The notes under the pieces: model-generated
Database searches by the model: none
What the model was told of the DNA's origin: nothing
Seen by the model: the letters and a program-made list of their open reading frames with translations, nothing else
Virus record (IMG/VR): IMGVR_UViG_3300028805_000056
Span: 32,001-96,000 of that record
Direction: 5' to 3' (one strand)
Length of the DNA stretch: 64,000 bases
DNA from: a virus
Lineage: Duplodnaviria > Caudoviricetes
Shown here: piece after piece, positions 3,224-52,213 of the stretch
Layout of the letters: each line of letters opens with the position of its first letter
Numbering within the stretch: the first letter of the stretch is position 1
Program-made: the position numbers and the translations under genes

Positions 3224-3568
3224 TCACCAACAAATACTTGCTTGATAAGGATGCGGTATAAATCCTAAAAAACTAAATGGATAGTAAGAACCACAAGCAC
3301 ATCTCCAATAATTATCCTTTTTTTGATGTATGAAATAAAGTATCATACCATAAACAGGTGTTTTAGTTTCATCAAAGAATATCCTAACCTTATTTGCTTC
3401 TAATGTATTTCTATCATACAATTCATCGAATTCTTTTCTATGAGAAGTTTCTGCTTCTTGAATAATCAACCTCATATCACGTTCAATTGCACGAGAACAA
3501 TTATATTCTTTATCCCCATAGTTAAAACTATCCTCTTTTATTGGAATATCTATGTAATTTTTACCCAT
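3224..3568 (-). CDS. Hypothetical protein
   Basis: 114 aa, co-oriented array. Confidence 0.65.
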   Translation of the reverse strand: MGKNYIDIPIKEDSFNYGDKEYNCSRAIERDMRLIIQEAETSHRKEFDELYDRNTLEANKVRIFFDETKTPVYGMILYFIHQKKDNYWRCACGSYYPFSFLGFIPHPYQASICW

Positions 3569-3574
3569 AATTAA

Positions 3575-4051
3575 TCAAAGCATTAGATAGTCACGCACTA
3601 AATCTTCATTCTCTTTGAGGAACAGTTCTCTTTGTTCAGCAGTATGGAAAGCAATGAAATGATAGGCATTATAGCTGAGACCACAATAAAAATCATTTCC
3701 ATTCCTACAAATTGTATATTTGCCACAATTTGTTGGCTTTACCCACTCCTCTTCAGTAACAACACCACCAAACCTTTCATCATTAGCCATTATTTGGCTA
3801 ATTCTTGCCATAGCAAGTGCTGATTTAGCTTGCTTTTCTGTTGCAAAAACATCATAAGCGTTTAATATATTCCACTGTAGTCTAACGTACTTAACAGTGC
3901 CGCTTTGTAAAAAATAACCATTAAATTGAGCATTTTCATCATCTCTCCACCTTTTCTCTTGGGTTGGTTTGAACCTAATGCACTCAAAAGTAGAGTTTTC
4001 TTTGTCAATCTCGAAACCTTCTGGGGGTGTAATTTTAATTTCTTTTTCCAT
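3575..4051 (-). CDS. Hypothetical protein
   Basis: 158 aa; first gene after the promoter at 4083-4114. Confidence 0.75.
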   Translation of the reverse strand: MEKEIKITPPEGFEIDKENSTFECIRFKPTQEKRWRDDENAQFNGYFLQSGTVKYVRLQWNILNAYDVFATEKQAKSALAMARISQIMANDERFGGVVTEEEWVKPTNCGKYTICRNGNDFYCGLSYNAYHFIAFHTAEQRELFLKENEDLVRDYLML

Positions 4052-11813: not shown

Positions 11814-11954
11814 TGACAGGTTGGTTATTGCCAATAGTCAGAGGCTGTCCTCTCCGTAACTATTAATTGAAATTCTTGCAAGTGTCACCCGGTTATATGG
11901 GCTGTTAACAACCTTCAACTCCGAGATTCTAATTTCACAATACCAACTCTGTCA
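11814..11954 (-). ncRNA. Unassigned rod-like structured RNA (6S-like shape)
   Basis: Ends pair (TGACAG.GTTGGT.ATTG / CAAT.ACCAAC.CTGTCA); inner stems TCTC/GAGA and AGTTGAAG/TTTCAATT. Confidence 0.45.
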
Positions 11955-23492: not shown

Positions 23493-24170
23493 TTATCTTC
23501 GTCCGCCACGAGACATTCCTCCACCAATCGATGAGCCTCTTGAAGGTGTAGAACCCATTCCTCTTGAAGACGGAGAAACAGATGACCTGCTTCCTGACAT
23601 TACGGATGAACCTCTGCTAACGGGTGACTGTCTGACGGTAACTCTCGTTGAACTGTTTATGATGGATGACCTGCTTGTATTTGTGCCACGTACATCACCC
23701 ATCGGTCTGCCTGTGTGCCCATCATTTCTTGTATGATCAATAGTTGAACCACCAATTCTTCCACCATTACTTCTTGGCCCTACACGGTAATGATTACCGC
23801 CACCTCTTCCATATTCCCTTCCCATGTCACGATGCGAAGGACCGTAGTTATGACGGTGATAGCCGTTATGGTCTCCCAATCTGTGTGTCGGTCTCCAATA
23901 TCTGTCAGGAACAAATCTCCAACCATAAGGGTGGGGTCTGTGGTACGGTCTGAAATACCACACGTTATTCCAAAGATAAGGATAATAGAAAAGACCCTTG
24001 TAATAGTAATACCCAATGACACTGTCATAATAATATGGCGTACCATATGTCACAATCGTACTATAACTTATTCCGTCATAATCGTCATAATAAACTTGTC
24101 CGTAGGTATCACAACCGGAGACAAACAAAAGGGTCATCAGACCGATCAAAAACAATTTAAACTTCTTCAT
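23493..24170 (-). CDS. Lipoprotein with a Tyr-rich core and R/G/S-rich disordered tail
   Basis: Signal peptide with lipobox FVSG-C; low-complexity C-terminus. Confidence 0.75.
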   Translation of the reverse strand: MKKFKLFLIGLMTLLFVSGCDTYGQVYYDDYDGISYSTIVTYGTPYYYDSVIGYYYYKGLFYYPYLWNNVWYFRPYHRPHPYGWRFVPDRYWRPTHRLGDHNGYHRHNYGPSHRDMGREYGRGGGNHYRVGPRSNGGRIGGSTIDHTRNDGHTGRPMGDVRGTNTSRSSIINSSTRVTVRQSPVSRGSSVMSGSRSSVSPSSRGMGSTPSRGSSIGGGMSRGGRR

Positions 24171-24296
24171 AATCCCGATATTTTTAAAAATGTATTTTAT
24201 TTCTTTCTAACATAAATATACAGAAATAGGTAGTAAAAATATCGGGGTTTTTCCTAAATTTTAGGGGAATATCCCCCACCACTTTTTTTCACTTTG

Positions 24297-24380
24297 TACC
24301 CCCGGTGGGACTCGAACCCACAAGCGTATCTCAGCACCTGATCCTAAATCAGGCCCCTTTACCATTTTGGGCACAGGGGT
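24297..24380 (-). tRNA. tRNA-Leu(UAG)
   Basis: CCTGA-TT-TAG-GA-TCAGG; variable arm; A73. Confidence 0.9.
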
Positions 24381-24389
24381 AATTCATTG

Positions 24390-24483
24390 TCGGGGAGGTG
24401 TGATTCGAACACACTTACTGCGAGTCCACTACGACAATTTGTTAAAGCAGAGCGATTTTACAGACCGCTGCCGTTACTCCCCG
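24390..24483 (-). tRNA. D-armless tRNA-Tyr(GUA)-like RNA
   Basis: CGGGGAG/CTCCCCG; 8-nt linker in place of the D-arm; GCGGT-CT-GTA-AA-ATCGC; ~37-nt variable region; canonical T-arm. Confidence 0.65.
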
Positions 24484-24492
24484 TTATTTTTG

Positions 24493-24566
24493 TGTGTTAG
24501 ACAGGGTACGATCCTGCAACCAGAAGAACCACAATCTTCCGCTCTGCCAATTGAGCTACTAACACC
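24493..24566 (-). tRNA. tRNA-His(GUG)
   Basis: GAAGA-TT-GTG-GT-TCTTC; encoded G-1 opposite A73; T-loop ATCGTAC. Confidence 0.85.
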
Positions 24567-24575
24567 ATATTGTTG

Positions 24576-24662
24576 CGGAGAGACAGGAATTCGAATCCTA
24601 TACCCTAAAAGAGTACGTTCTGATTAGCAGTCAGACCTTGCTCCCCGCAAGTTGTCCTCTCC
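24576..24662 (-). tRNA. tRNA-Ser(GCU) with an atypical D-arm
   Basis: TCTGA-CT-GCT-AA-TCAGA; G73; long variable arm; D-arm CTTGC-GGGGA-GCAAG. Confidence 0.78.
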
Positions 24663-25530
24663 TATTATATCTTTTATCTCTTGCGCTTTTGCCCTTATTT
24701 AAAGCCATATAGTTCTCTGTCATTGCGTGACAGTTTGGACATAATACTTTTAAATTTTTTGTGGTATTATTACCGCTATTACCATCAATGTGGTGTATTT
24801 GTAAAATTGTGTTTTTGGTCGCTTTATTATATCCTTCAAAACCACATTCTTCACATTTATAATGAGCTTTTTCAAATAAAAATTTTCTAATAATTTTAGG
24901 AAGCTTTAAATTTGGATCTAAAGTTAATTCTTCGTTTTCCCATTTTTCAATATACTCTTTACTCCTATGTATCGAACAGCATTTATTAGAACAGAATTTT
25001 CTGTTACTATGTCTACTTTTAATTATTTTACCACATTCTTGACACGTATATTCCTTTCCATTACTTATGTATTTATTTCTATTTCTACAAGATTCTGAAC
25101 AATATTTACGTTGGCGACCTTCTAATTTTTTACCACAAATTGCACAAAACTTTTCTACATCTTTATCCTGTTTGTGTCCTTTTTTTCTGAGTTTGTCCCC
25201 AATTTTTTTATAAATTGCTTTATCCCTGTGTTTGTTGTTATATTTAGCCGAACAAGATGGGCTGCAAAAACTTTTGGCCCACTTATTACTAATTTCTTTC
25301 CCACATTCTTTGCAGTATTTTTTTGGGGTATTATGTCTATCTTTGTAAACAGACATGTTAAAACCAACTGATTCTGCAATTTCCTTCAAGTAATTAGCGC
25401 CTTGAGTATTGTCGCTTATTCCAAAATACTTGTGTGCTTGATTTTTACTACTGAAACTATCAAACTTTTCAAAGACCTCTTTTTTTCTTTCTCTTGTACT
25501 AATGTCTATTACCTTTTTTTTCCTTTCCAT
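24631..25530 (-). CDS. HNH endonuclease with repeated Cys zinc-finger modules
   Basis: Three CxxCGK...(F/Y)CSxxC repeats; LQIHHIDG...N...NLKVLCPNCH. Confidence 0.88.
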   Translation of the reverse strand: MERKKKVIDISTRERKKEVFEKFDSFSSKNQAHKYFGISDNTQGANYLKEIAESVGFNMSVYKDRHNTPKKYCKECGKEISNKWAKSFCSPSCSAKYNNKHRDKAIYKKIGDKLRKKGHKQDKDVEKFCAICGKKLEGRQRKYCSESCRNRNKYISNGKEYTCQECGKIIKSRHSNRKFCSNKCCSIHRSKEYIEKWENEELTLDPNLKLPKIIRKFLFEKAHYKCEECGFEGYNKATKNTILQIHHIDGNSGNNTTKNLKVLCPNCHAMTENYMALNKGKSARDKRYNRRGQLAGSKV

Positions 25531-25610
25531 AATAAAATTTTATTTTTTATAAATAAATATTATATTATGCGGAAAAATAAAGGCTTCGACTTAACTTTTT
25601 TATTTTAAAG

Positions 25611-25676
25611 TAGAGATGCGGGGGGTAATCTTAGATTAAACCATCCCCCCCCCCTCACCAACTTGGGTAACTCTCC
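25611..25676 (-). pseudogene. Degenerate tRNA (Ser/Tyr-type 5' end)
   Basis: GGAGAGTTACCCAAGTTGGTGAGGGG resembles an acceptor plus D-arm; followed by a G-run/C-run stem; no T-arm. Confidence 0.4.
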
Positions 25677-25701
25677 GAATTGAGGTAAAAATTACCTCAA
25701 T

Positions 25702-26208
25702 TTACTTTTCGACACGCTTTAATTTAGCACTGCCATTTACAATCTCATAGATGTGTGTTCCGTCGACGATTTCCTTTGGAACAGTGTACGGCTTTTTAAC
25801 CAACCGCATTTGTTTCCTTTCTGCAAGGATTTCATCGTAAGGTTTAACATCATAGGTCCCATTGTACAGTGTCTCAAGGTCCTCCTTCAACTCACGAATG
25901 TGATTGCGTGACATACTGATCTTATCAGTTGTAATCTGTGCAAAGTTACCAAACAACTTTCCTCCTGAAGTACCATTGTAAAAGTTGGCAAACGACTTGC
26001 AATCCTCCAAAACTTCTAACATTGACTTAATGTCAGCCTTTCTGATATCAATCTCATTGCGCTTCATAGCAATCAATTGACCGATTCCAATGTTAAAGTT
26101 GTCCTTCTCACTTACCTTTGTCTTAGAAATAAACACATTACCATGTGATTTCTGACAAAATACCACGATACCTGCTTCGGCATCAATTTTAAATTCTTGA
26201 TTCTTCAT
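25702..26208 (-). CDS. Hypothetical protein
   Basis: 168 aa inside the tRNA region. Confidence 0.7.
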   Translation of the reverse strand: MKNQEFKIDAEAGIVVFCQKSHGNVFISKTKVSEKDNFNIGIGQLIAMKRNEIDIRKADIKSMLEVLEDCKSFANFYNGTSGGKLFGNFAQITTDKISMSRNHIRELKEDLETLYNGTYDVKPYDEILAERKQMRLVKKPYTVPKEIVDGTHIYEIVNGSAKLKRVEK

Positions 26209-26260
26209 ATTATTATTTTTTTATTTATTTGTTGCTCACAAACAACATTATTAATTTTTG

Positions 26261-26333
26261 CGTAAGAAGAGAGGCTCGAACTCCCGACACCTGGTTTTGG
26301 AGACCAGTGCTCTACCAACTGAGCTATTCCTAC
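26261..26333 (-). tRNA. tRNA-Trp(CCA)
   Basis: CTGGT-CT-CCA-AA-ACCAG; G73. Confidence 0.92.
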
Positions 26334-26342
26334 ATTTTTAAG

Positions 26343-26414
26343 CGGTCCATAAGAGAGTCGAACTCTTGCCCCGTGATAGACAGTCACGTATACTAACCGT
26401 TATACGAATGGACC
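26343..26414 (-). tRNA. tRNA-Asp(GUC)
   Basis: CGTGA-CT-GTC-TA-TCACG; G73. Confidence 0.9.
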
Positions 26415-26420
26415 AATTTG

Positions 26421-26492
26421 CGCTTCGGGGGAATTACGATATCCCGACCCTCTGATTAACAGTCAGATGCTCTGCCTCTGAGCTACCGAAGC
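26421..26492 (-). tRNA. tRNA-Asn(GUU)
   Basis: TCTGA-CT-GTT-AA-TCAGA; atypical T-loop ATCGTAA. Confidence 0.85.
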
Positions 26493-26497
26493 AATTG

Positions 26498-26571
26498 TGG
26501 ACCTGATGGGAATCGAACCCATGACCCCCTGCTTGCAAAGCAGGTGCTCTAGCCATCTGAGCTACAGGCCC
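26498..26571 (-). tRNA. tRNA-Ala(UGC)
   Basis: G3.U70; CCTGC-TT-TGC-AA-GCAGG. Confidence 0.93.
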
Positions 26572-26575
26572 AATG

Positions 26576-26607
26576 CAAAGATACAACAAATTTTTAAATT
26601 GACCAAA
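26576..26607 (-). promoter_or_regulatory. Bacteroidota sigma70-type promoter internal to the tRNA array
   Basis: TTTG-N20-TATCTTTG. Confidence 0.8.
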
Positions 26608-26628
26608 TTTTCAAACATTTTTTTTTTG

Positions 26629-26701
26629 TGGGGCAGGATGGAATCGAACCATCATCTAAGGATTTTCAGTCCTCCGCATTGACCACCTCTGCCACTGCCC
26701 C
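26629..26701 (-). tRNA. tRNA-Phe(GAA)
   Basis: GAGGA-CT-GAA-AA-TCCTT. Confidence 0.9.
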
Positions 26702-26708
26702 AATATTG

Positions 26709-26784
26709 TCTACCCGATGGGACTCGAACCCATGACCCACGGATTAAAAGTCCGTTGCTCTATAACCTACTGAGCTACGGGTAG
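26709..26784 (-). tRNA. tRNA-Lys(UUU)
   Basis: ACGGA-CT-TTT-AA-TCCGT. Confidence 0.92.
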
Positions 26785-26796
26785 GTTTTCCTTACG

Positions 26797-26870
26797 AGGG
26801 CAGAGTGAGAATCGAACTCACGAATCGTAGGTTTTGCAGACCGCGCCATTAACCGCTTTGGTATCTGCCC
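26797..26870 (-). tRNA. tRNA-Cys(GCA)
   Basis: U73; GGT-CT-GCA-AA-ACC; upper anticodon stem mismatched. Confidence 0.85.
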
Positions 26871-26877
26871 GTTTTTG

Positions 26878-26951
26878 TGGGCTTGGTAGGGTTCGAACCT
26901 ACGACTTCCATCGTATCAGAATGGCACTCTAACCAACTGAGTTACAAGCCC
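26878..26951 (-). tRNA. tRNA-Ile(GAU)
   Basis: CCATT-CT-GAT-AC-GATGG. Confidence 0.9.
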
Positions 26952-26954
26952 GAT

Positions 26955-27004
26955 AAAAAAGAAAAAAGGCTGTCGTTTTCCGAATGGTTCACAACAGCCT
27001 TTTT
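26955..27004 (-). terminator. Intrinsic terminator (attenuator) immediately upstream of the tRNA array
   Basis: AGGCTGTTGT/ACGACAGCCT stem followed by TTTTTCTTTTTT. Confidence 0.85.
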
Positions 27005-27037
27005 GGTAAATTATATGTATAAACTTAAATGTTCCCA

Positions 27038-27148
27038 CTATATACTGTCTATGAACCCTTCACTTCCGACAAAACAAATATCGAACCACTTGCTATCATA
27101 CGCGAGTGATTTATTATCAATACTATTATGTTTTGCAAAATTCATCAT
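27038..27148 (-). CDS. Putative 36-aa attenuator leader peptide
   Basis: MMNFAKHNSIDNKSLAYDSKWFDICFVGSEGFIDSI*; its 3' end can pair with the terminator 5' arm; TATTTAT at 27191-27197 upstream. Confidence 0.7.
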   Translation of the reverse strand: MMNFAKHNSIDNKSLAYDSKWFDICFVGSEGFIDSI

Positions 27149-27229
27149 AATTGAATAGTTCTTAAAACAGTTTTTATCTTTTTTTCTTTTATAAATATAT
27201 CTTTATTTTAAAAAGTACATTTTTTTTTG

Positions 27230-27303
27230 TGCGATATCGTGGAGTCGAACCACAATTTTTGTCCTGATGACAAGACAATGTTCTTCCATTGAACTAAAAT
27301 CGC
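27230..27303 (-). tRNA. tRNA-like gene with an enlarged anticodon arm (identity undetermined)
   Basis: Acceptor, D and T arms intact; TTGTC-TTGTCATCAG-GACAA (10-nt loop, or an 8-bp stem with a TCAT loop). Confidence 0.6.
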
Positions 27304-27473
27304 AAATTGGGGAGATTTGGAGCTATCACGCCATCACTGACGTTTAGTGTTCATTAATCATAATTCGGACTCCCCATTCAAGGTTTCCCTTTTCCTTGCC
27401 GATCATCCGTGACGTTGGTTGTCCGATGATTTTCGCTCTTCTATTTTTCCAACTTCAAGCGACTGGTGTGACG

Positions 27474-27534
27474 TGACCCATCCGTGACTCGAACACGGGG
27501 AAACTTGTGCTCTATCCAACTGAGCTAATGAGCC
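27474..27534 (-). pseudogene. tRNA lacking the 3' half of the anticodon arm (Arg-CCN-like remnant)
   Basis: GGCTCAT/ATGGGTC, intact D and T arms, only ACAAGTTTCC between them. Confidence 0.7.
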
Positions 27535-27553
27535 AATACAAATATACACTTTT

Positions 27554-28855
27554 TTATTTTATAAATCCATACTTGTTATCATTTTTTTTCGTTGAATCTA
27601 TGAAATTTTCAATTGCATCATTTCTTAAAAGCATATTTTCACTTATACTTGAGTCAATCGACACATTTTTCATTTTCCTACACCGACTAAGTGCGGTATA
27701 TAATTGTCCCGTTTGGAATATTTCCTTAATATGCAAGACAACGTGATCAAATGTGAGTCCCTGACTCTTGTGAATTGTAATGGCATATGCGAGTGTCAGT
27801 GGAAATTGTGTGCATGTTCCTGTACATACCCTATTCACAACCGTATTCATTTTTTCATCCACCTTCACCTCATACTTGTAACTTTCCCACTCGTTCGGAT
27901 AAATAGCAACCTTTTTTCCTTCATCCGTCAATACCGTGATAACCTCTGAAGTTATTTTATCCACAACACCAAGTGTTCCGTTATAGTACTGTCCTACGTC
28001 GCCGTCATTCTTTGTGATCATAACTCTCGCGCCGACTCTCAGTTTCAGTTCGAGATCACAATTTGCGCTCTTCGGATTGAAATCACCTGTAAGTGTTGCC
28101 TTAAAAACATGTGTTGGTTTACCAAGTTTCTTTTGGTTGAATGTATCAGCAACACTTCTTAATGCACAAAGATGAATAGCATTCTTGCTTGGTTTGTTAT
28201 TATTAAGCATTTCCTCTATCCACATCTTTGATTTGTCTGTCAACTTTCCATTTCTGACATTGTTAAGGAGGGAAATGAAGTTCTTATCCTTTTGTCTGAA
28301 TATCTCGGATAGTTCTATCATTTCAAATTCCGTGTTTTTAAATACATTTGCATTGAAGAAATAGAAATTGTCATAGAATTCACTTAACACATTTGCCTCG
28401 TCTGTTGTTACCACGGGTGGAAGTTGCATCATATCACCGAACATAAGAACCTGTAGACCACCGAATGGCTTTTTACACTTTCTTGCGGCACGAAGTCTCC
28501 TATCAATGGCATCCATAAGGTCGCATCGTACCATTGATATTTCATCAATGATGAGAACCTTGGCGTATTTAAGAACGTTTCTCTTGTTTACCGGTAGTCT
28601 CCATTCAAGTTTTTTATCTGGCTCGATGACACCGATAGGCAGGGAGAACATGCTGTGTATAGTAACACCACCCGCATTGATTGCTGCCACACCCGTGGGT
28701 GCTACGATTACCCCTGATAGACTGAAACGCTCCTGTAAAAGTTTTAGGAATGTTGTTTTACCACTTCCCGCCTTTCCTGTTATAAATAAATTCTTACCCT
28801 GATCAATAAGGTCAAGGGCAGTTTTCATTTCCTCTGTAATGACTATATTTTCCAT
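27554..28855 (-). CDS. PIF1-family SF1B helicase
   Basis: GKAGSGKT, APTGVAA, IIDEISM, FGDMMQLPPV, AITIHKSQGLT, YTALSR. Confidence 0.92.
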   Translation of the reverse strand: MENIVITEEMKTALDLIDQGKNLFITGKAGSGKTTFLKLLQERFSLSGVIVAPTGVAAINAGGVTIHSMFSLPIGVIEPDKKLEWRLPVNKRNVLKYAKVLIIDEISMVRCDLMDAIDRRLRAARKCKKPFGGLQVLMFGDMMQLPPVVTTDEANVLSEFYDNFYFFNANVFKNTEFEMIELSEIFRQKDKNFISLLNNVRNGKLTDKSKMWIEEMLNNNKPSKNAIHLCALRSVADTFNQKKLGKPTHVFKATLTGDFNPKSANCDLELKLRVGARVMITKNDGDVGQYYNGTLGVVDKITSEVITVLTDEGKKVAIYPNEWESYKYEVKVDEKMNTVVNRVCTGTCTQFPLTLAYAITIHKSQGLTFDHVVLHIKEIFQTGQLYTALSRCRKMKNVSIDSSISENMLLRNDAIENFIDSTKKNDNKYGFIK

Positions 28856-28887
28856 ATTTCAAATATACAAAAAAACCGCCCATTTTG

Positions 28888-28969
28888 TATCCCCTCTCAG
28901 ATTCGAACTGAGACCCAATTAAGGAACCGCTTTTGAGACGGTCGCGTCTACCAATTCCGCCAAGGGGAT
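28888..28969 (-). tRNA. tRNA-Leu(CAA)
   Basis: ACCGT-CT-CAA-AA-GCGGT; variable arm. Confidence 0.92.
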
Positions 28970-29104
28970 ATTATACATTCTCTATATAGGAGGCGCTTTT
29001 TTAATGAGCAACTGCAATAATCTCATCCTATAGTCTTAGAGAATGTTTTTAATATGGTTTCTTGTACGGGTCAAACTCATATCCTAAACTACGTGCAGTA
29101 TTCG

Positions 29105-29177
29105 TACCCAGAGAAGGACTCGAACCCTCATCATGGCATCCGTAGTGCCGTATTCTAATCCATTGAACTATCTGGGT
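29105..29177 (-). tRNA. tRNA-Arg(ACG)
   Basis: GGCA-CT-ACG-GA-TGCC. Confidence 0.88.
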
Positions 29178-29197
29178 ATGCCTATTGTAAATACGTC

Positions 29198-29767
29198 TTA
29201 TTGGTAATTTTCGTCTTGAATGATACCGAACTTGTGGAAATACCTCAATGGTCTCCATTTATGACCATTAACATAGAAGCCCCATTTATGTCTTGGTCTT
29301 CCCTCGAACATCAATGTCCAAGCACCACCCTTGGGAATAGAAAGATAATGTCTATCTTCTGCTTTTGAGAACCAAATTGAACGGTTCATATGGAAGAAGT
29401 TGTGCCAAGAATTAAAAATTCCTTCAACATAGCATTCTTTTTGATTTATGGTATGGCAAGCCAAGTCATATTTATCAAACTCGGTTTCATTCTTGAATTG
29501 AACCAATTCATTGGGATTCTTATCTGGGTCAATTGGTTTTACGTTCCAATATTTCCCTTTCAGAACAATGCTCAACAAATCAGAACTATGGTCATGAAAG
29601 AACCTGTTATCATCGGATTTAATCCAATGGTGGATTCTCATTGAATAGCCAAAGAAGATGAATGTCCAACGAATAAGGTATGGATTATCCTCATATCCGA
29701 TTTTTTCTTTCCATCTGATTTGGAACTTCTTGAATTGTTTCAGATTTGTGGAACCTTTCATATTCAA
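29198..29767 (-). CDS. Cupin-like phage protein
   Basis: RIHHWIKSDDNRFFHDH...SIVLKGKY...RH...WTL...WGF motif pattern. Confidence 0.55.
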   Translation of the reverse strand: MNMKGSTNLKQFKKFQIRWKEKIGYEDNPYLIRWTFIFFGYSMRIHHWIKSDDNRFFHDHSSDLLSIVLKGKYWNVKPIDPDKNPNELVQFKNETEFDKYDLACHTINQKECYVEGIFNSWHNFFHMNRSIWFSKAEDRHYLSIPKGGAWTLMFEGRPRHKWGFYVNGHKWRPLRYFHKFGIIQDENYQ

Positions 29768-29786
29768 ATTTTGTTTTTAAGTTTTG

Positions 29787-29976
29787 TCAACGGGGAAGGA
29801 TTCGAACCCCCATACTTCATTGCCAATACATTGCCCTATAGAATGCTCTTATTGACAATTCCGTGCTGTCTCAGCCCCAACCATGTATTAGGTGTGTCTC
29901 TCCCGTCGTCACGGAATCGTTTCCATCGTCATGGAAACACCTACGATTGTGCTCTTCCTATTTGAGCTACCCGTTG
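29787..29976 (-). ncRNA. 190-nt tRNA-like RNA with a large structured insert replacing the anticodon arm
   Basis: CAACGGG/CCCGTTG-A acceptor; D-arm GCTC/GAGC; T-arm GGGGG-TTCGAAT-CCTTC; ~135-nt internal domain. Confidence 0.7.
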
Positions 29977-29985
29977 TTTATTTTG

Positions 29986-30648
29986 TGCGCAAGTCGGGAC
30001 TCGAACCCGAACGGGCATAATGCCCAGCAGATTTTCCTGCTACTCTATGTTACCATAGCCAAACAATGAGTGATGCTGGACAATAATATTTCTGCATTAT
30101 TTCAGCAGGCACCATTTTAACGTCCTATAGTCTATTGTTTGTTGTAGTCTGGAACATATCATTACCATATTGAAATTCTTCGAAGTAGGAAGCATCAGTT
30201 TTTTTTTAACTTTCTTATATATTCAATCATTATCGAAATAACATGTATTTTCTTACTGAAGTGATATATTACTTTTCTTCCAATTTCAACTTAGGTATCT
30301 CCTCTATGTCCTCTACACATTTATGAGAATCTTTCATCCTTTCTCAAGGGCTATCTTCTTCCATTTTATTGATAGCATCTTCTCAATTTAGCTCGGTATT
30401 ATCCTTACACATTATTGGTTAGTGTTTAATACTTTGGACAAGCAGTCTGATACCAATCACATTTAACTTTCTCTTCTCTATGACTAAGAGTGTGAATCTA
30501 ATATTGAGCCTGATATATTACAACCATATTTTTCTTTGGCAATTAATTAAAAGGACTTCCACCGAATTAGGGAGATTCTACTATGGGATTTCTCGCCATA
30601 GCACTCAATTTAATAAGTCTGCCGCGTCTACCATTCCGCCACAAGCGC
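29986..30648 (-). tRNA. tRNA-Leu(UAA) interrupted by a group I intron (exons 30615-30648 and 29986-30035)
   Basis: Spliced arm GCAGA-CT-T|AA-AA-TCTGC; Leu-type D-arm and variable arm; A73. Confidence 0.88.
30036..30614 (-). ncRNA. Group I intron (IC3-like), 579 nt, no ORF
   Basis: P1 CUUA/UGAG with U.G; core blocks nearly identical to the Ser intron; ends in G. Confidence 0.88.
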
Positions 30649-30673
30649 ATACATTATTTCAAAGAACATTTTG

Positions 30674-30747
30674 TGGGCCTTGAGGGGCTTGAACCCACGA
30701 CCTTCAGATTATGAGTCTGCTGCTCTAACCAACTGAGCTAAAGGCCC
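30674..30747 (-). tRNA. tRNA with CAU anticodon, Ile2 (lysidine)-like
   Basis: GGGCCTT acceptor; CAGA-CT-CAT-AA-TCTG. Confidence 0.85.
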
Positions 30748-30776
30748 TATGATTTACTTTTATTTTTATTTATTTG

Positions 30777-30848
30777 TAGGGGGTAACTGAGTCAAACAGT
30801 TTCCTTCAGAGCCAAAATCTGACGTGGCTATCGCTACACCAACCCCCT
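30777..30848 (-). tRNA. tRNA-Gln(UUG)
   Basis: TCAGA-TT-TTG-GC-TCTGA; divergent D and T loops. Confidence 0.8.
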
Positions 30849-30876
30849 TTATAATTCATTGTTGTTTTTCATTTAA

Positions 30877-31088
30877 AAAGTTTCCTACATCTGTCTTAGA
30901 GCTATTAACCAAGTCGCCTTTCGGATACGGTGCAGATTCTCACTGCTTTTCTCTTTCACAGTCTCCATCACGTTGCTTTACGTACCTATGACCTCAATTA
31001 CGTGTTTGCCACTACAAGGTCTTCCAACTGTCAATTCAGTATTCCCATAGAAAGTTCTTATTGAATCACTTTCAGCCTCGGAAACTTT
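30877..31088 (-). ncRNA. Unassigned ~210-nt structured RNA
   Basis: 9-bp closing stem AAAGTTTCC/GGAAACTTT; T-loop-like GCAG-TGAGAAT-CTGC; CC-GAAA-GG; begins just after a promoter. Confidence 0.5.
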
Positions 31089-49455: not shown

Positions 49456-49563
49456 ATTATATGTTTGTTTTATCTCTTATAAATATTTTTGTTTGTATAT
49501 TTATGACGTTAAAAAATAAAAGTATTTTTGTATATTTACGTCGATCAATAATTTTGGGATGAT

Positions 49564-49785
49564 ATGTTAACGAAGGATTTTATTGACGGTTTTACACAAA
49601 TTGAGGAAATTTTAAAGACAAGCGAGACCGAAGAACAATTCGGAAAGACAAAACAATGGGCACTCACATACATTGACAATGAGAGAAGATTCCAAAGGAA
49701 AAAGTATTTCTTTTTCTTAAGGAAATATGTCGATGAAATATATGACGTGTTCTATGAAATAATTCTACATAAGAAATTTAAATAA
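49564..49785 (+). CDS. Hypothetical protein
   Basis: 73 aa. Confidence 0.55.
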   Translation: MLTKDFIDGFTQIEEILKTSETEEQFGKTKQWALTYIDNERRFQRKKYFFFLRKYVDEIYDVFYEIILHKKFK

Positions 49786-51226: not shown

Positions 51227-52213
51227 ATGAACATAATAGAACCGAAATTTGAAATTATAGAACAGTCTTTTGACGGGGATTTGTTATCTGATATGTTCAA
51301 ACACATCGAGTTATGTGGGAGAACGTGTTATAAATCAGAGGATAAGATTACGGATGACTCCATGTTCAAGTTTATTGAACATCTTGAGAAGAGTGAACAT
51401 GGTGCGATGCTTGAACATGGAACAGTTTATTTGACAATATCTGTCTTAAGTCCATTAGATGATGCTCAATATATTTTCAAGACTGACATTGTTAATTTTT
51501 TCCAACATAATGAATATTCAAAAGTTAATAAAGAAACTGTCACCTCTTGTTTAACAATTTTCTATATAACAACGAATTGGAGAGTTATATTTGAAAATAA
51601 GGACGAATTGATGTGTAAGAACATTTTTGAAAATCATCATATTCAAAAAGAAGATTTAGAAACAAGTATTCTTCAATTTATGACAGTTCCGACTGAACAC
51701 CACGAAAAAAGATACACAGTTAAGTTTACTTGTGACATCGGTGTAAGCAGGGAGTTCAACAGACACAGGAAGGATTCGATAGCGGAAGAATCCACAAGGT
51801 ACTGCAATTACACAAAGGACAAGTTTGGAGGAGAGTTGAACATTGCGAAACCAGTATGGATTAGTGAAGGTGAGTATGCAGGTATTGGATATGATATATT
51901 CAAGTATTGTTATTGGATTTCCCAACACAAAGATCAAGATGAGTTTTCAGATATTGACTATTGGTTATTTGCAAATCTTGCTGACGAATATTCATACATC
52001 AATCTGATAAGATTGGGTTGGACCCCACAACAGGCGAGAGTTGTCCTTCCGTTGGATACAAAGACAGAATTGGTTCATACTGCATTTGCAAGTGATTGGA
52101 AGCATTTCTTTAATCTAAGGGCATTGGGAACTACCGGTGCGCCACATCCATCCGCTAAGGAGTTAGCACTGCCGTTAATGGAAGAATTTATAAAAAGAGG
52201 ATATTTGAAATGA
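51227..52213 (+). CDS. thyX: Flavin-dependent thymidylate synthase
   Basis: GRTCYKS, HGAMLEH, REFNRHR..S..EESTRY, QQARVVLP, FFNLR. Confidence 0.92.
   Translation: MNIIEPKFEIIEQSFDGDLLSDMFKHIELCGRTCYKSEDKITDDSMFKFIEHLEKSEHGAMLEHGTVYLTISVLSPLDDAQYIFKTDIVNFFQHNEYSKVNKETVTSCLTIFYITTNWRVIFENKDELMCKNIFENHHIQKEDLETSILQFMTVPTEHHEKRYTVKFTCDIGVSREFNRHRKDSIAEESTRYCNYTKDKFGGELNIAKPVWISEGEYAGIGYDIFKYCYWISQHKDQDEFSDIDYWLFANLADEYSYINLIRLGWTPQQARVVLPLDTKTELVHTAFASDWKHFFNLRALGTTGAPHPSAKELALPLMEEFIKRGYLK

Follow-up and report, generated by a model that had tools for sequence, protein, structure and literature searches.

It has long been asked why phages have tRNA genes of their own. Recent work (PMC10264068, PMC11555353) argues that phage tRNAs stand in for those host tRNAs that defence nucleases have destroyed. 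The locus described here raises the further question of whether a phage might regulate its own tRNA genes. On the minus strand of a 64,000-nt stretch of phage DNA, referred to below as the window, a short ORF is followed by a strong intrinsic terminator, and a tRNA array begins a few nucleotides later. A preliminary description of this locus had proposed that the ORF and terminator together form a leader-peptide attenuator that switches on the array when tRNAs run short. We have examined the parts of this unit, their conservation, the RNA structures they can form and the relationship between the codons of the ORF and the tRNAs downstream.

The leader unit and its surroundings

The window comes from an IMG/VR virus record of 148.5 kb, which is an estimated 41% complete and so represents a fragment of a very large, uncultured phage. 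A gene for a Pif1-type helicase adjoins the leader region, and the more distant homologues of this helicase (44-48% identical) are labelled Prevotella or Bacteroides. From these labels, together with TAnnTTTG-type promoters between the tRNA genes, we infer a Bacteroidota-type host.

All of the elements that had been described (a promoter-like motif, a 36-codon ORF at 27148-27038, a terminator and a tRNA) are present on the minus strand where they had been placed. The parts of the unit and of the downstream array are as follows, L008 being a related contig introduced in the next section.

27189..27217, minus strand: promoter-like region, with the 11-nt motif TATATTTATAA at 27199-27189 and a T-rich stretch about 20 nt upstream
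27157..27171, minus strand: region 1, a 5'-UTR strand whose pairing with the ORF 3' end closes a rod-like hairpin enclosing the whole ORF
27038..27148, minus strand: leader ORF, 36 codons and a TAG stop, beginning ATG ATG AAT
27071..27142, minus strand: proposed sensing stretch (codons 3-26), whose 24 codons specify the 12 amino acids of the downstream tRNAs and no others
27086..27110, minus strand: apical hairpin of the rod, where most differences between the window and L008 cluster
27043..27063, minus strand: region 2, the 3' end of the ORF (codons 29-36), whose alternative partners are region 1 or the terminator 5' arm and loop
26986..26999, minus strand: region 3, the terminator 5' arm and part of its loop, the antiterminator partner of region 2
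26955..27004, minus strand: intrinsic terminator, a 9-bp G+C-rich stem extended by A-U pairs, an inner 2-bp stem and a 13-nt U-rich tract
26628..26951, minus strand: genes for tRNA-Ile(GAU), Cys(GCA), Lys(UUU) and Phe(GAA), not separated from the terminator by any promoter
26576..26622, minus strand: internal host-type promoter, TTG ... TATCTTTG, between tRNA-Phe and tRNA-Ala, with its element at 26583-26576
24296..26571, minus strand: distal array of Ala, Asn, Asp and Trp tRNAs, a 168-aa ORF, an HNH endonuclease ORF, and Ser(GCU), His, Tyr(GUA) and Leu(UAG) tRNAs

The motif TATATTTATAA is the same in all five members of the leader family that we have identified (the window, L008, L006, L241 and L245). 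It reads TAnnTTTA, one base from TAnnTTTG, which we take to be the -7 element of the Bacteroidota promoter consensus. There are only three occurrences of the motif in the 148.5-kb record, and one other site lies 26 nt ahead of a gene start. The terminator pairs 26999-26991 with 26976-26968, encloses the inner 2 bp and runs into a U-tract at 26967-26955; the hairpin has a predicted energy of -21.3 kcal/mol, and a simple terminator scanner skipped it solely because its loop exceeds 8 nt. The gene for tRNA-Ile(GAU) begins at 26951, 4 nt past the U-tract. Searches of 24100-31000 against Rfam 15, at gathering thresholds and with E values up to 1, returned only tRNAs and chance matches, and no leader, riboswitch or T-box.

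Twelve tRNAs lie downstream, as far as 24296. ARAGORN called ten of the 12 at default settings and tRNA-Ser(GCU) (24662-24575) at relaxed settings, and a D-armless tRNA-Tyr(GUA) (24483-24390) was read by eye from the sequence, so that the twelve isotypes listed originally are right. The same four tRNAs (Ile, Cys, Lys and Phe) come after the leader in L008, and the internal promoter motif TATCTTTG recurs between tRNAs of L006, L241 and L008. The 5' part of tRNA-Ser(GCU) is overlapped by the ORF of a 299-residue HNH endonuclease (24631-25530, minus strand), with a Ser-like 5' tRNA fragment upstream of this ORF at 25620-25680; an HNH protein of 330 residues, encoded within the arrays of L006 and L245, shares 33% identity with this endonuclease.

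The leader does precede the array that starts with tRNA-Ile, but the tRNA region itself starts earlier, with further tRNAs upstream of the ORF on the same strand (27303-27229, about 27547-27475 and 28969-30848). The one just upstream of the leader (27229-27303, minus strand) is a tRNA-Asp(GUC)-like gene whose 10-nt anticodon loop is treated by ARAGORN as holding a 3-nt intron; this gene is identical in L008. The spacer at 27304-27474 was considered as a structured RNA and rejected (z -0.27). None of the other tRNA clusters of the window has a leader ORF and terminator. Structured RNAs free of ORFs lead other clusters (11814-11954 and 30877-31088, minus strand), and the rod-like hairpin at 11814-11954 stops 4 nt before a tRNA-Ser.

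Conservation and alternative pairing in two lineages

The neighbouring helicase led to the Logan contig L008 (SRR17284437), which is 92% identical to the window over 1 kb, and to a second lineage (helicase about 64% identical) represented by L006, an 86.9-kb ENA contig, and L241. A further member, L245, lies on a 121-kb IMG/VR contig and was found with a 20-mer from the L006 core. These five sequences, in two lineages, share the motif, the ATG-ATG-AAT start, the ORF, the terminator and a tRNA that begins 3-5 nt after the U-tract. The ORF has 36, 36, 30, 28 and 28 codons in the window, L008, L006, L241 and L245, respectively, and stays open in all five, although the sequences differ by indels and radical substitutions and the stop codon has moved. 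The second-lineage leader has about 38-47% of residues in common with the window type, and the leader DNA is largely unalignable between them. A profile search of 1.84 billion protein representatives yielded a single further variant, P0121 (29 aa), in which the ORF is again open. On this sequence evidence the leader family is small yet conserved across clearly diverged genomes. Conservation in homologous loci had been named beforehand as a test capable of refuting the attenuator proposal, and the proposal withstood it, both the ORF and the antiterminator being kept in the two lineages.

Other searches added no members. Among GenBank phages there was no close relative, blastn giving tRNA matches only and tblastn with both leader peptides giving chance matches only. 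IMG/VR and JGI metagenomes were also scanned for exact matches to the antiterminator 14-mer, to the terminator and to the motif plus start (with or without TGGTT); these scans produced only chance matches, none of them before a tRNA. With the helicase as anchor, nine look-ups located the unit only in L006, L241 and L008, the other relatives being without a tRNA array after the helicase. With the HNH endonuclease as anchor, 79 loci of related large phages held no new MMN-type leader besides that on L245's own record, and other MMx ORFs near tRNAs at these loci were rejected as internal pieces of larger genes.

The tRNA regions of these relatives also contain RNAs of interest in their own right. 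In L008 the first tRNA (3509-3590, compared with window 26951-26877) keeps the acceptor stem, T-arm and GAU anticodon, while its D-arm and variable regions have been swapped for unrelated sequence, and it receives no ARAGORN call. Beside the last tRNA of L006 (10426-10590) and L245 (456-629) is an RNA of ~165-175 nt with a full-length match to the archaeal RNase P model, at scores of 45-48 bits, below the gathering score of 84, and E values of 1e-10 to 2e-11; this may be a miniature phage-encoded RNase P RNA, and in L006 it just precedes a tmRNA. Four tRNAs of L006 (7040-7127, 7205-7290, 9193-9281 and 9533-9620) are 84-89 nt long and have long variable arms combined with the anticodons CCA, GCA, CCU and UUU, which are normally found on short-arm tRNAs; their anticodon loops look canonical. 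Finally, a tRNA with anticodon CUA, which reads amber and is labelled Pyl by ARAGORN, is present in many related large-phage contigs and lies directly after a terminator in L303 (4664-4744) and also in L309, L310, L313, L346, L349 and L350. This hints at TAG recoding in the phages that carry it.

An antiterminator helix of 13 bp with one bulge, formed between the end of the ORF and the terminator, was central to the original proposal and proved to be real. The end of the ORF (27058-27044) pairs with the terminator 5' arm and loop (26998-26986) through 13 bp, of which three are G.U pairs, with one bulge; the predicted energy of the duplex between regions 2 and 3 is -15.8 to -19.6 kcal/mol, and only 1.0-1.5% of dinucleotide shuffles are as good. 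When the 3' end of the ORF is set against the 5' arm plus loop, the window gives -19.6 kcal/mol (P 0.015) and equivalent helices are found in L006 (-21.6 kcal/mol, P 0.02-0.05) and L241 (-20.5 kcal/mol, P 0.0025-0.02), where they join ORF codons 20-31 to the 5' half of the terminator. This wider definition of region 3 was adopted after the 5' arm alone, without the loop, had given a pairing not above chance in the L006 type. An A-to-G change in region 3 of L008 converts a U-A pair to U.G and so keeps the pair, and the pairing of the terminator stem is kept by compensatory change between L006 and L241. As a control, 17 other terminator-to-tRNA junctions from the 79 loci of related large phages showed no comparable upstream complementarity, with a mean z of -0.08 and a minimum of -1.7 versus -2.6 to -3.6 for the leader pairing.

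Folding under a stalled-ribosome constraint, as had been suggested, favoured the same helix. The RNA left free by a ribosome halted within the first two-thirds of the ORF was folded as far as the terminator loop, and in every member the helix between regions 2 and 3 was its minimum free energy structure (-17 to -23 kcal/mol for a stall no later than codon 26 of the window ORF). Once the 3' arm is added the terminator becomes the predicted fold, with a margin of just 3-9 kcal/mol. In each member the stop codon falls either at the antiterminator strand or within it. The whole window leader folds at -62.2 kcal/mol (z -5.4 versus shuffles). The rod formed by regions 1 and 2 is well supported in the window type, by both minimum free energy and consensus folds (-32.7 kcal/mol, z -2.9, one of 200 shuffles as good), but it is not significant in the L006 type (z -0.6), for which it was rejected.

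Codon content of the leader and the downstream tRNAs

Codons 3-26 of the window ORF specify exactly the 12 amino acids of the downstream tRNAs, each of them one to four times and with no codon runs. The preliminary description had asked for a permutation test of this composition against AT-matched short ORFs, and the exact 12-isotype match lies above chance: a stretch with exactly this set is seen in 2.4e-5 of random peptides of matched composition and in none of 830 other short ATG ORFs from the window phage and related phages, and only 4 of 50388 random 12-isotype sets fit the leader as well. The match extends to the decoding of individual codons. In the sensing stretches, which were set after the data had been seen (codons 3-26, and 3-19 in L006), 22 of 24 codons of the window ORF are readable by anticodons of the array against a background of 0.48 (P 7.6e-6), the exceptions being TCA and CTC, and the window ORF is the only one of 829 short ORFs to reach this score. 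Its last ten codons match in four cases, and in all members the rest of the ORF outside the sensing stretch matches worse (1/10 to 4/10).

The relatives show a more modest match. In L006, 12 of the 17 codons of the sensing stretch are readable (P 0.004), a level reached by a window in 37 of 829 short ORFs, and codons 4-19 spell all nine isotypes of the array with one outlier; in L245 the score is 9/17 (P 0.0025). The window leader fits its own array (26/34 codons) far better than the other two arrays (13/34 and 7/34), whereas the L006 leader fits its own array (15/28) about as well as that of the window (14/28). L245 is without the Tyr, Phe and Pro tRNAs of L006, yet Tyr and Phe codons are kept in its leader. 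Similarly, the L008 array has a tRNA-Val, but the L008 leader has lost its sole Val codon. The L008 leader has gained a Pro codon and L008 has a tRNA-Pro; this pairing of Pro codon and tRNA-Pro (L006 versus L245, L008 versus the window) was not counted, because changes in Thr, Val, Tyr and Phe do not track. The match between leader and array is close in the window (22/24) and modest in L006 and L245, and the arrays of L008 and L245 are not fully mirrored in their leaders. The idea that the leader is a roster of the tRNAs downstream is thus strongly supported in the window and weakly replicated in its relatives.

Cassettes with related properties are present in an unrelated, cultured phage, the Caulobacter phage phiCbK (JX100813). 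The annotated 45-residue gp083 (49540-49677) and a predicted terminator stand before a Pro/Lys/Leu/Ala/Ser tRNA block, and 23 of 44 gp083 codons are served by this block, whereas each of the two remaining blocks serves 1/44. At 51341-51439 a 32-codon ORF that is not annotated, also with a terminator, comes before a Phe/Val/Ile/Gln block, which serves 10 of its 31 codons versus 3/31. The phiCbK genome paper makes no mention of leaders or attenuation.

Interpretation and comparison with known systems

The sequences themselves show the parts of the unit and that both lineages have kept them, the three mutually exclusive pairings predicted for the window, and the match between codons and anticodons. 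We favour, at a probability of about one half, the interpretation that the unit is a translation-coupled transcription attenuator, placed before phage tRNA genes and working by the leader-peptide logic of trp and ilv. The host RNA polymerase would start a few bases after TATATTTATAA and a ribosome would load on the tandem AUG AUG as this emerges. If no ribosome were present, region 1 would pair with region 2, the terminator would fold and the transcript would end 4 nt ahead of tRNA-Ile. Smooth reading to the UAG would place a ribosome over region 2, masking it, and the terminator would again form. A stall at any of codons 3-26, where the cognate tRNA is scarce, would leave region 2 free to pair with region 3, so that no terminator would form and transcription would read through into tRNA-Ile, Cys, Lys, Phe and beyond, with RNase P freeing the tRNAs. 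In this scheme we infer that the ORF is translated, that ribosomes stall on it, that the terminator is read through and that a physiological trigger exists.

This attenuator interpretation, as originally put forward, is strengthened by the recurrence of the unit, by alternative pairing in both lineages and by the codon match of the window, and weakened by the modest match in the second lineage. The caveat about an internal promoter that accompanied it also stands. The predicted host-type promoter at 26583-26576 comes after the fourth tRNA; only Ile, Cys, Lys and Phe would therefore depend strictly on read-through, and this promoter can express eight of the 12 matched tRNAs without the leader.

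The wider idea of on-demand tRNA supply is one that we put forward tentatively. The leader would list the codons served downstream, depletion of any one of these tRNAs would stall the ribosome and open the terminator, and a multi-input sensor of this kind would have arisen repeatedly in unrelated phages, namely large Bacteroidota-type phages and phiCbK-like Caulobacter phages. Possible causes of depletion include host tRNA nucleases, host shut-off and the codon demand of late infection. The belief that no attenuator had been described for a phage tRNA operon agrees with our full-text literature searches, which found no description of a leader-peptide attenuator for tRNA genes.

The main alternative, which we consider rather unlikely, is that the leader is a structured RNA whose terminator is regulated or leaky but does not respond to stalled ribosomes. 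The folds may be set by a phage or host antitermination protein, by polymerase speed, by temperature or by an RNA-binding factor, or the hairpin may serve mainly as a stable 3' end of the upstream transcript after an RNase P cut; the ORF would then be incidental or would merely aid RNA unfolding. Substitutions between the window and L008 fit such an RNA, as base pairing survives all six that fall at paired positions (a double change from C-G to U-A and four one-sided changes) and the remaining differences of the rod's apical hairpin fall in loops. The alternative pairing, moreover, is the best-replicated feature of the unit, and other tRNA clusters of the genome are led by structured RNAs without an ORF. 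In these phages it is quite general, and no special mark, for a terminator to abut a tRNA; the arrangement is common in the related phages after non-coding spacers and also after ordinary genes of 84-121 aa. As it follows such genes, the junction alone is not evidence of regulation, and read-through or processing at these sites needs no leader. A structured RNA or leaky terminator would, however, leave the codon-anticodon match of the window (P about 8e-6) unexplained. It also sits poorly with an ORF that is open in five of five DNA sequences and has a conserved tandem start, the probability of a frame open by chance being ~8% for the window type and ~13% for the L006 type (rough estimates from base composition), and with a stop codon at or inside the antiterminator strand in every member. 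In addition, no Rfam family, riboswitch or T-box matches the leader.

It is improbable, in our judgement, that the ORF is an ordinary small gene encoding a phage micro-protein of 28-36 residues, with its own promoter and a partly efficient terminator, and that it matches the tRNAs by chance. Small ORFs are common in these phages, the promoter-like motif also stands ahead of at least one normal gene of the genome, and all five peptides share, unchanged, the Met-Met-Asn start, Trp-Phe and a single Cys, Lys and Tyr. Close relatives nevertheless differ by radical replacements: seven codons differ between the window and L008, with four non-synonymous changes that include Ser to Pro and Asp to Leu, and L006 and L241 differ at seven codons, six of them through non-synonymous changes, and in the position of the stop codon, with the frame still open. 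The length of the C-terminus varies, the lineages are separated by a 9-residue indel, and apart from the one variant there was no homologue outside the family among the 1.84 billion protein representatives or in GenBank phages. A micro-protein would also leave unexplained the antiterminator complementarity, which is absent from the control junctions. As these radical substitutions keep the frame and, between the window and L008, every RNA pair, there is no sign of a functional peptide; the pattern fits a translated frame and a folding RNA in which the peptide itself is irrelevant.

Finally, it is very improbable that the unit is a coincidence, in which an AT-rich spacer whose only function is termination holds a chance open frame and chance complementarity, because the whole unit is kept across two lineages and the ORF, pairing and codon match are jointly rare, even though AT-rich DNA favours Asn, Lys, Ile, Phe and Tyr codons and several thresholds were set after the data had been seen. 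Both the micro-protein and coincidence are less likely than either an attenuator or a regulated or leaky terminator.

If the attenuator interpretation is correct, the phage would control its tRNA supply by feedback, through decoding of the very codons that are served downstream. Leader-peptide attenuation would then extend from amino-acid and synthetase genes to tRNA genes, and nature would have provided, in compact form, a sensor that monitors many tRNAs simultaneously.

The nearest textbook comparison is with the enterobacterial leader-peptide attenuators of amino-acid operons (ilvGMEDA, thr, trpL, hisL, leuL and pheL), among which the ilv and thr leaders are multivalent. As in the ilv, thr and trp leaders, a short leader ORF on the 5' transcript is followed by an intrinsic terminator. 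Mutually exclusive 1:2, 2:3 and 3:4 pairings are predicted, the 1:2 pairing with significance in the window type, and the position of the stop codon is such that a ribosome terminating there would mask the antiterminator strand. The sensing stretch, as in ilv and thr, contains codons for several different amino acids. In contrast to these attenuators, the phage unit precedes tRNAs and not biosynthetic enzymes, its leader has twelve amino acids with one to four codons each and no runs, and region 1 lies in the 5' UTR and not inside the ORF. The phage is also of a Bacteroidota-type host, in which the coupling of transcription and translation has been little studied.

The pheST attenuator of E. 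coli, which controls phenylalanyl-tRNA synthetase, responds to a single amino acid by means of consecutive Phe codons. Like pheST, the phage unit would apply leader-peptide attenuation to a component of the decoding apparatus rather than to biosynthesis; unlike pheST, it lists twelve amino acids and precedes tRNA genes, not a synthetase. T-box leaders of Gram-positive bacteria bind uncharged tRNA directly, with no need for translation, and have a conserved specifier loop and T-box sequence. They share with the proposed attenuator the purpose of a terminator/antiterminator switch that reports tRNA supply, whereas the phage leader matches no T-box or other Rfam leader even at permissive thresholds. 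The phiCbK cassettes differ in having no sequence relationship to the unit, in being G+C-rich and in belonging to a phage of a different host phylum. They resemble it in combining a promoter-proximal small ORF, a rho-independent terminator and a tRNA block, with ORF codons that favour their own block, and the likeness thus consists of the ORF, the terminator and the codons.
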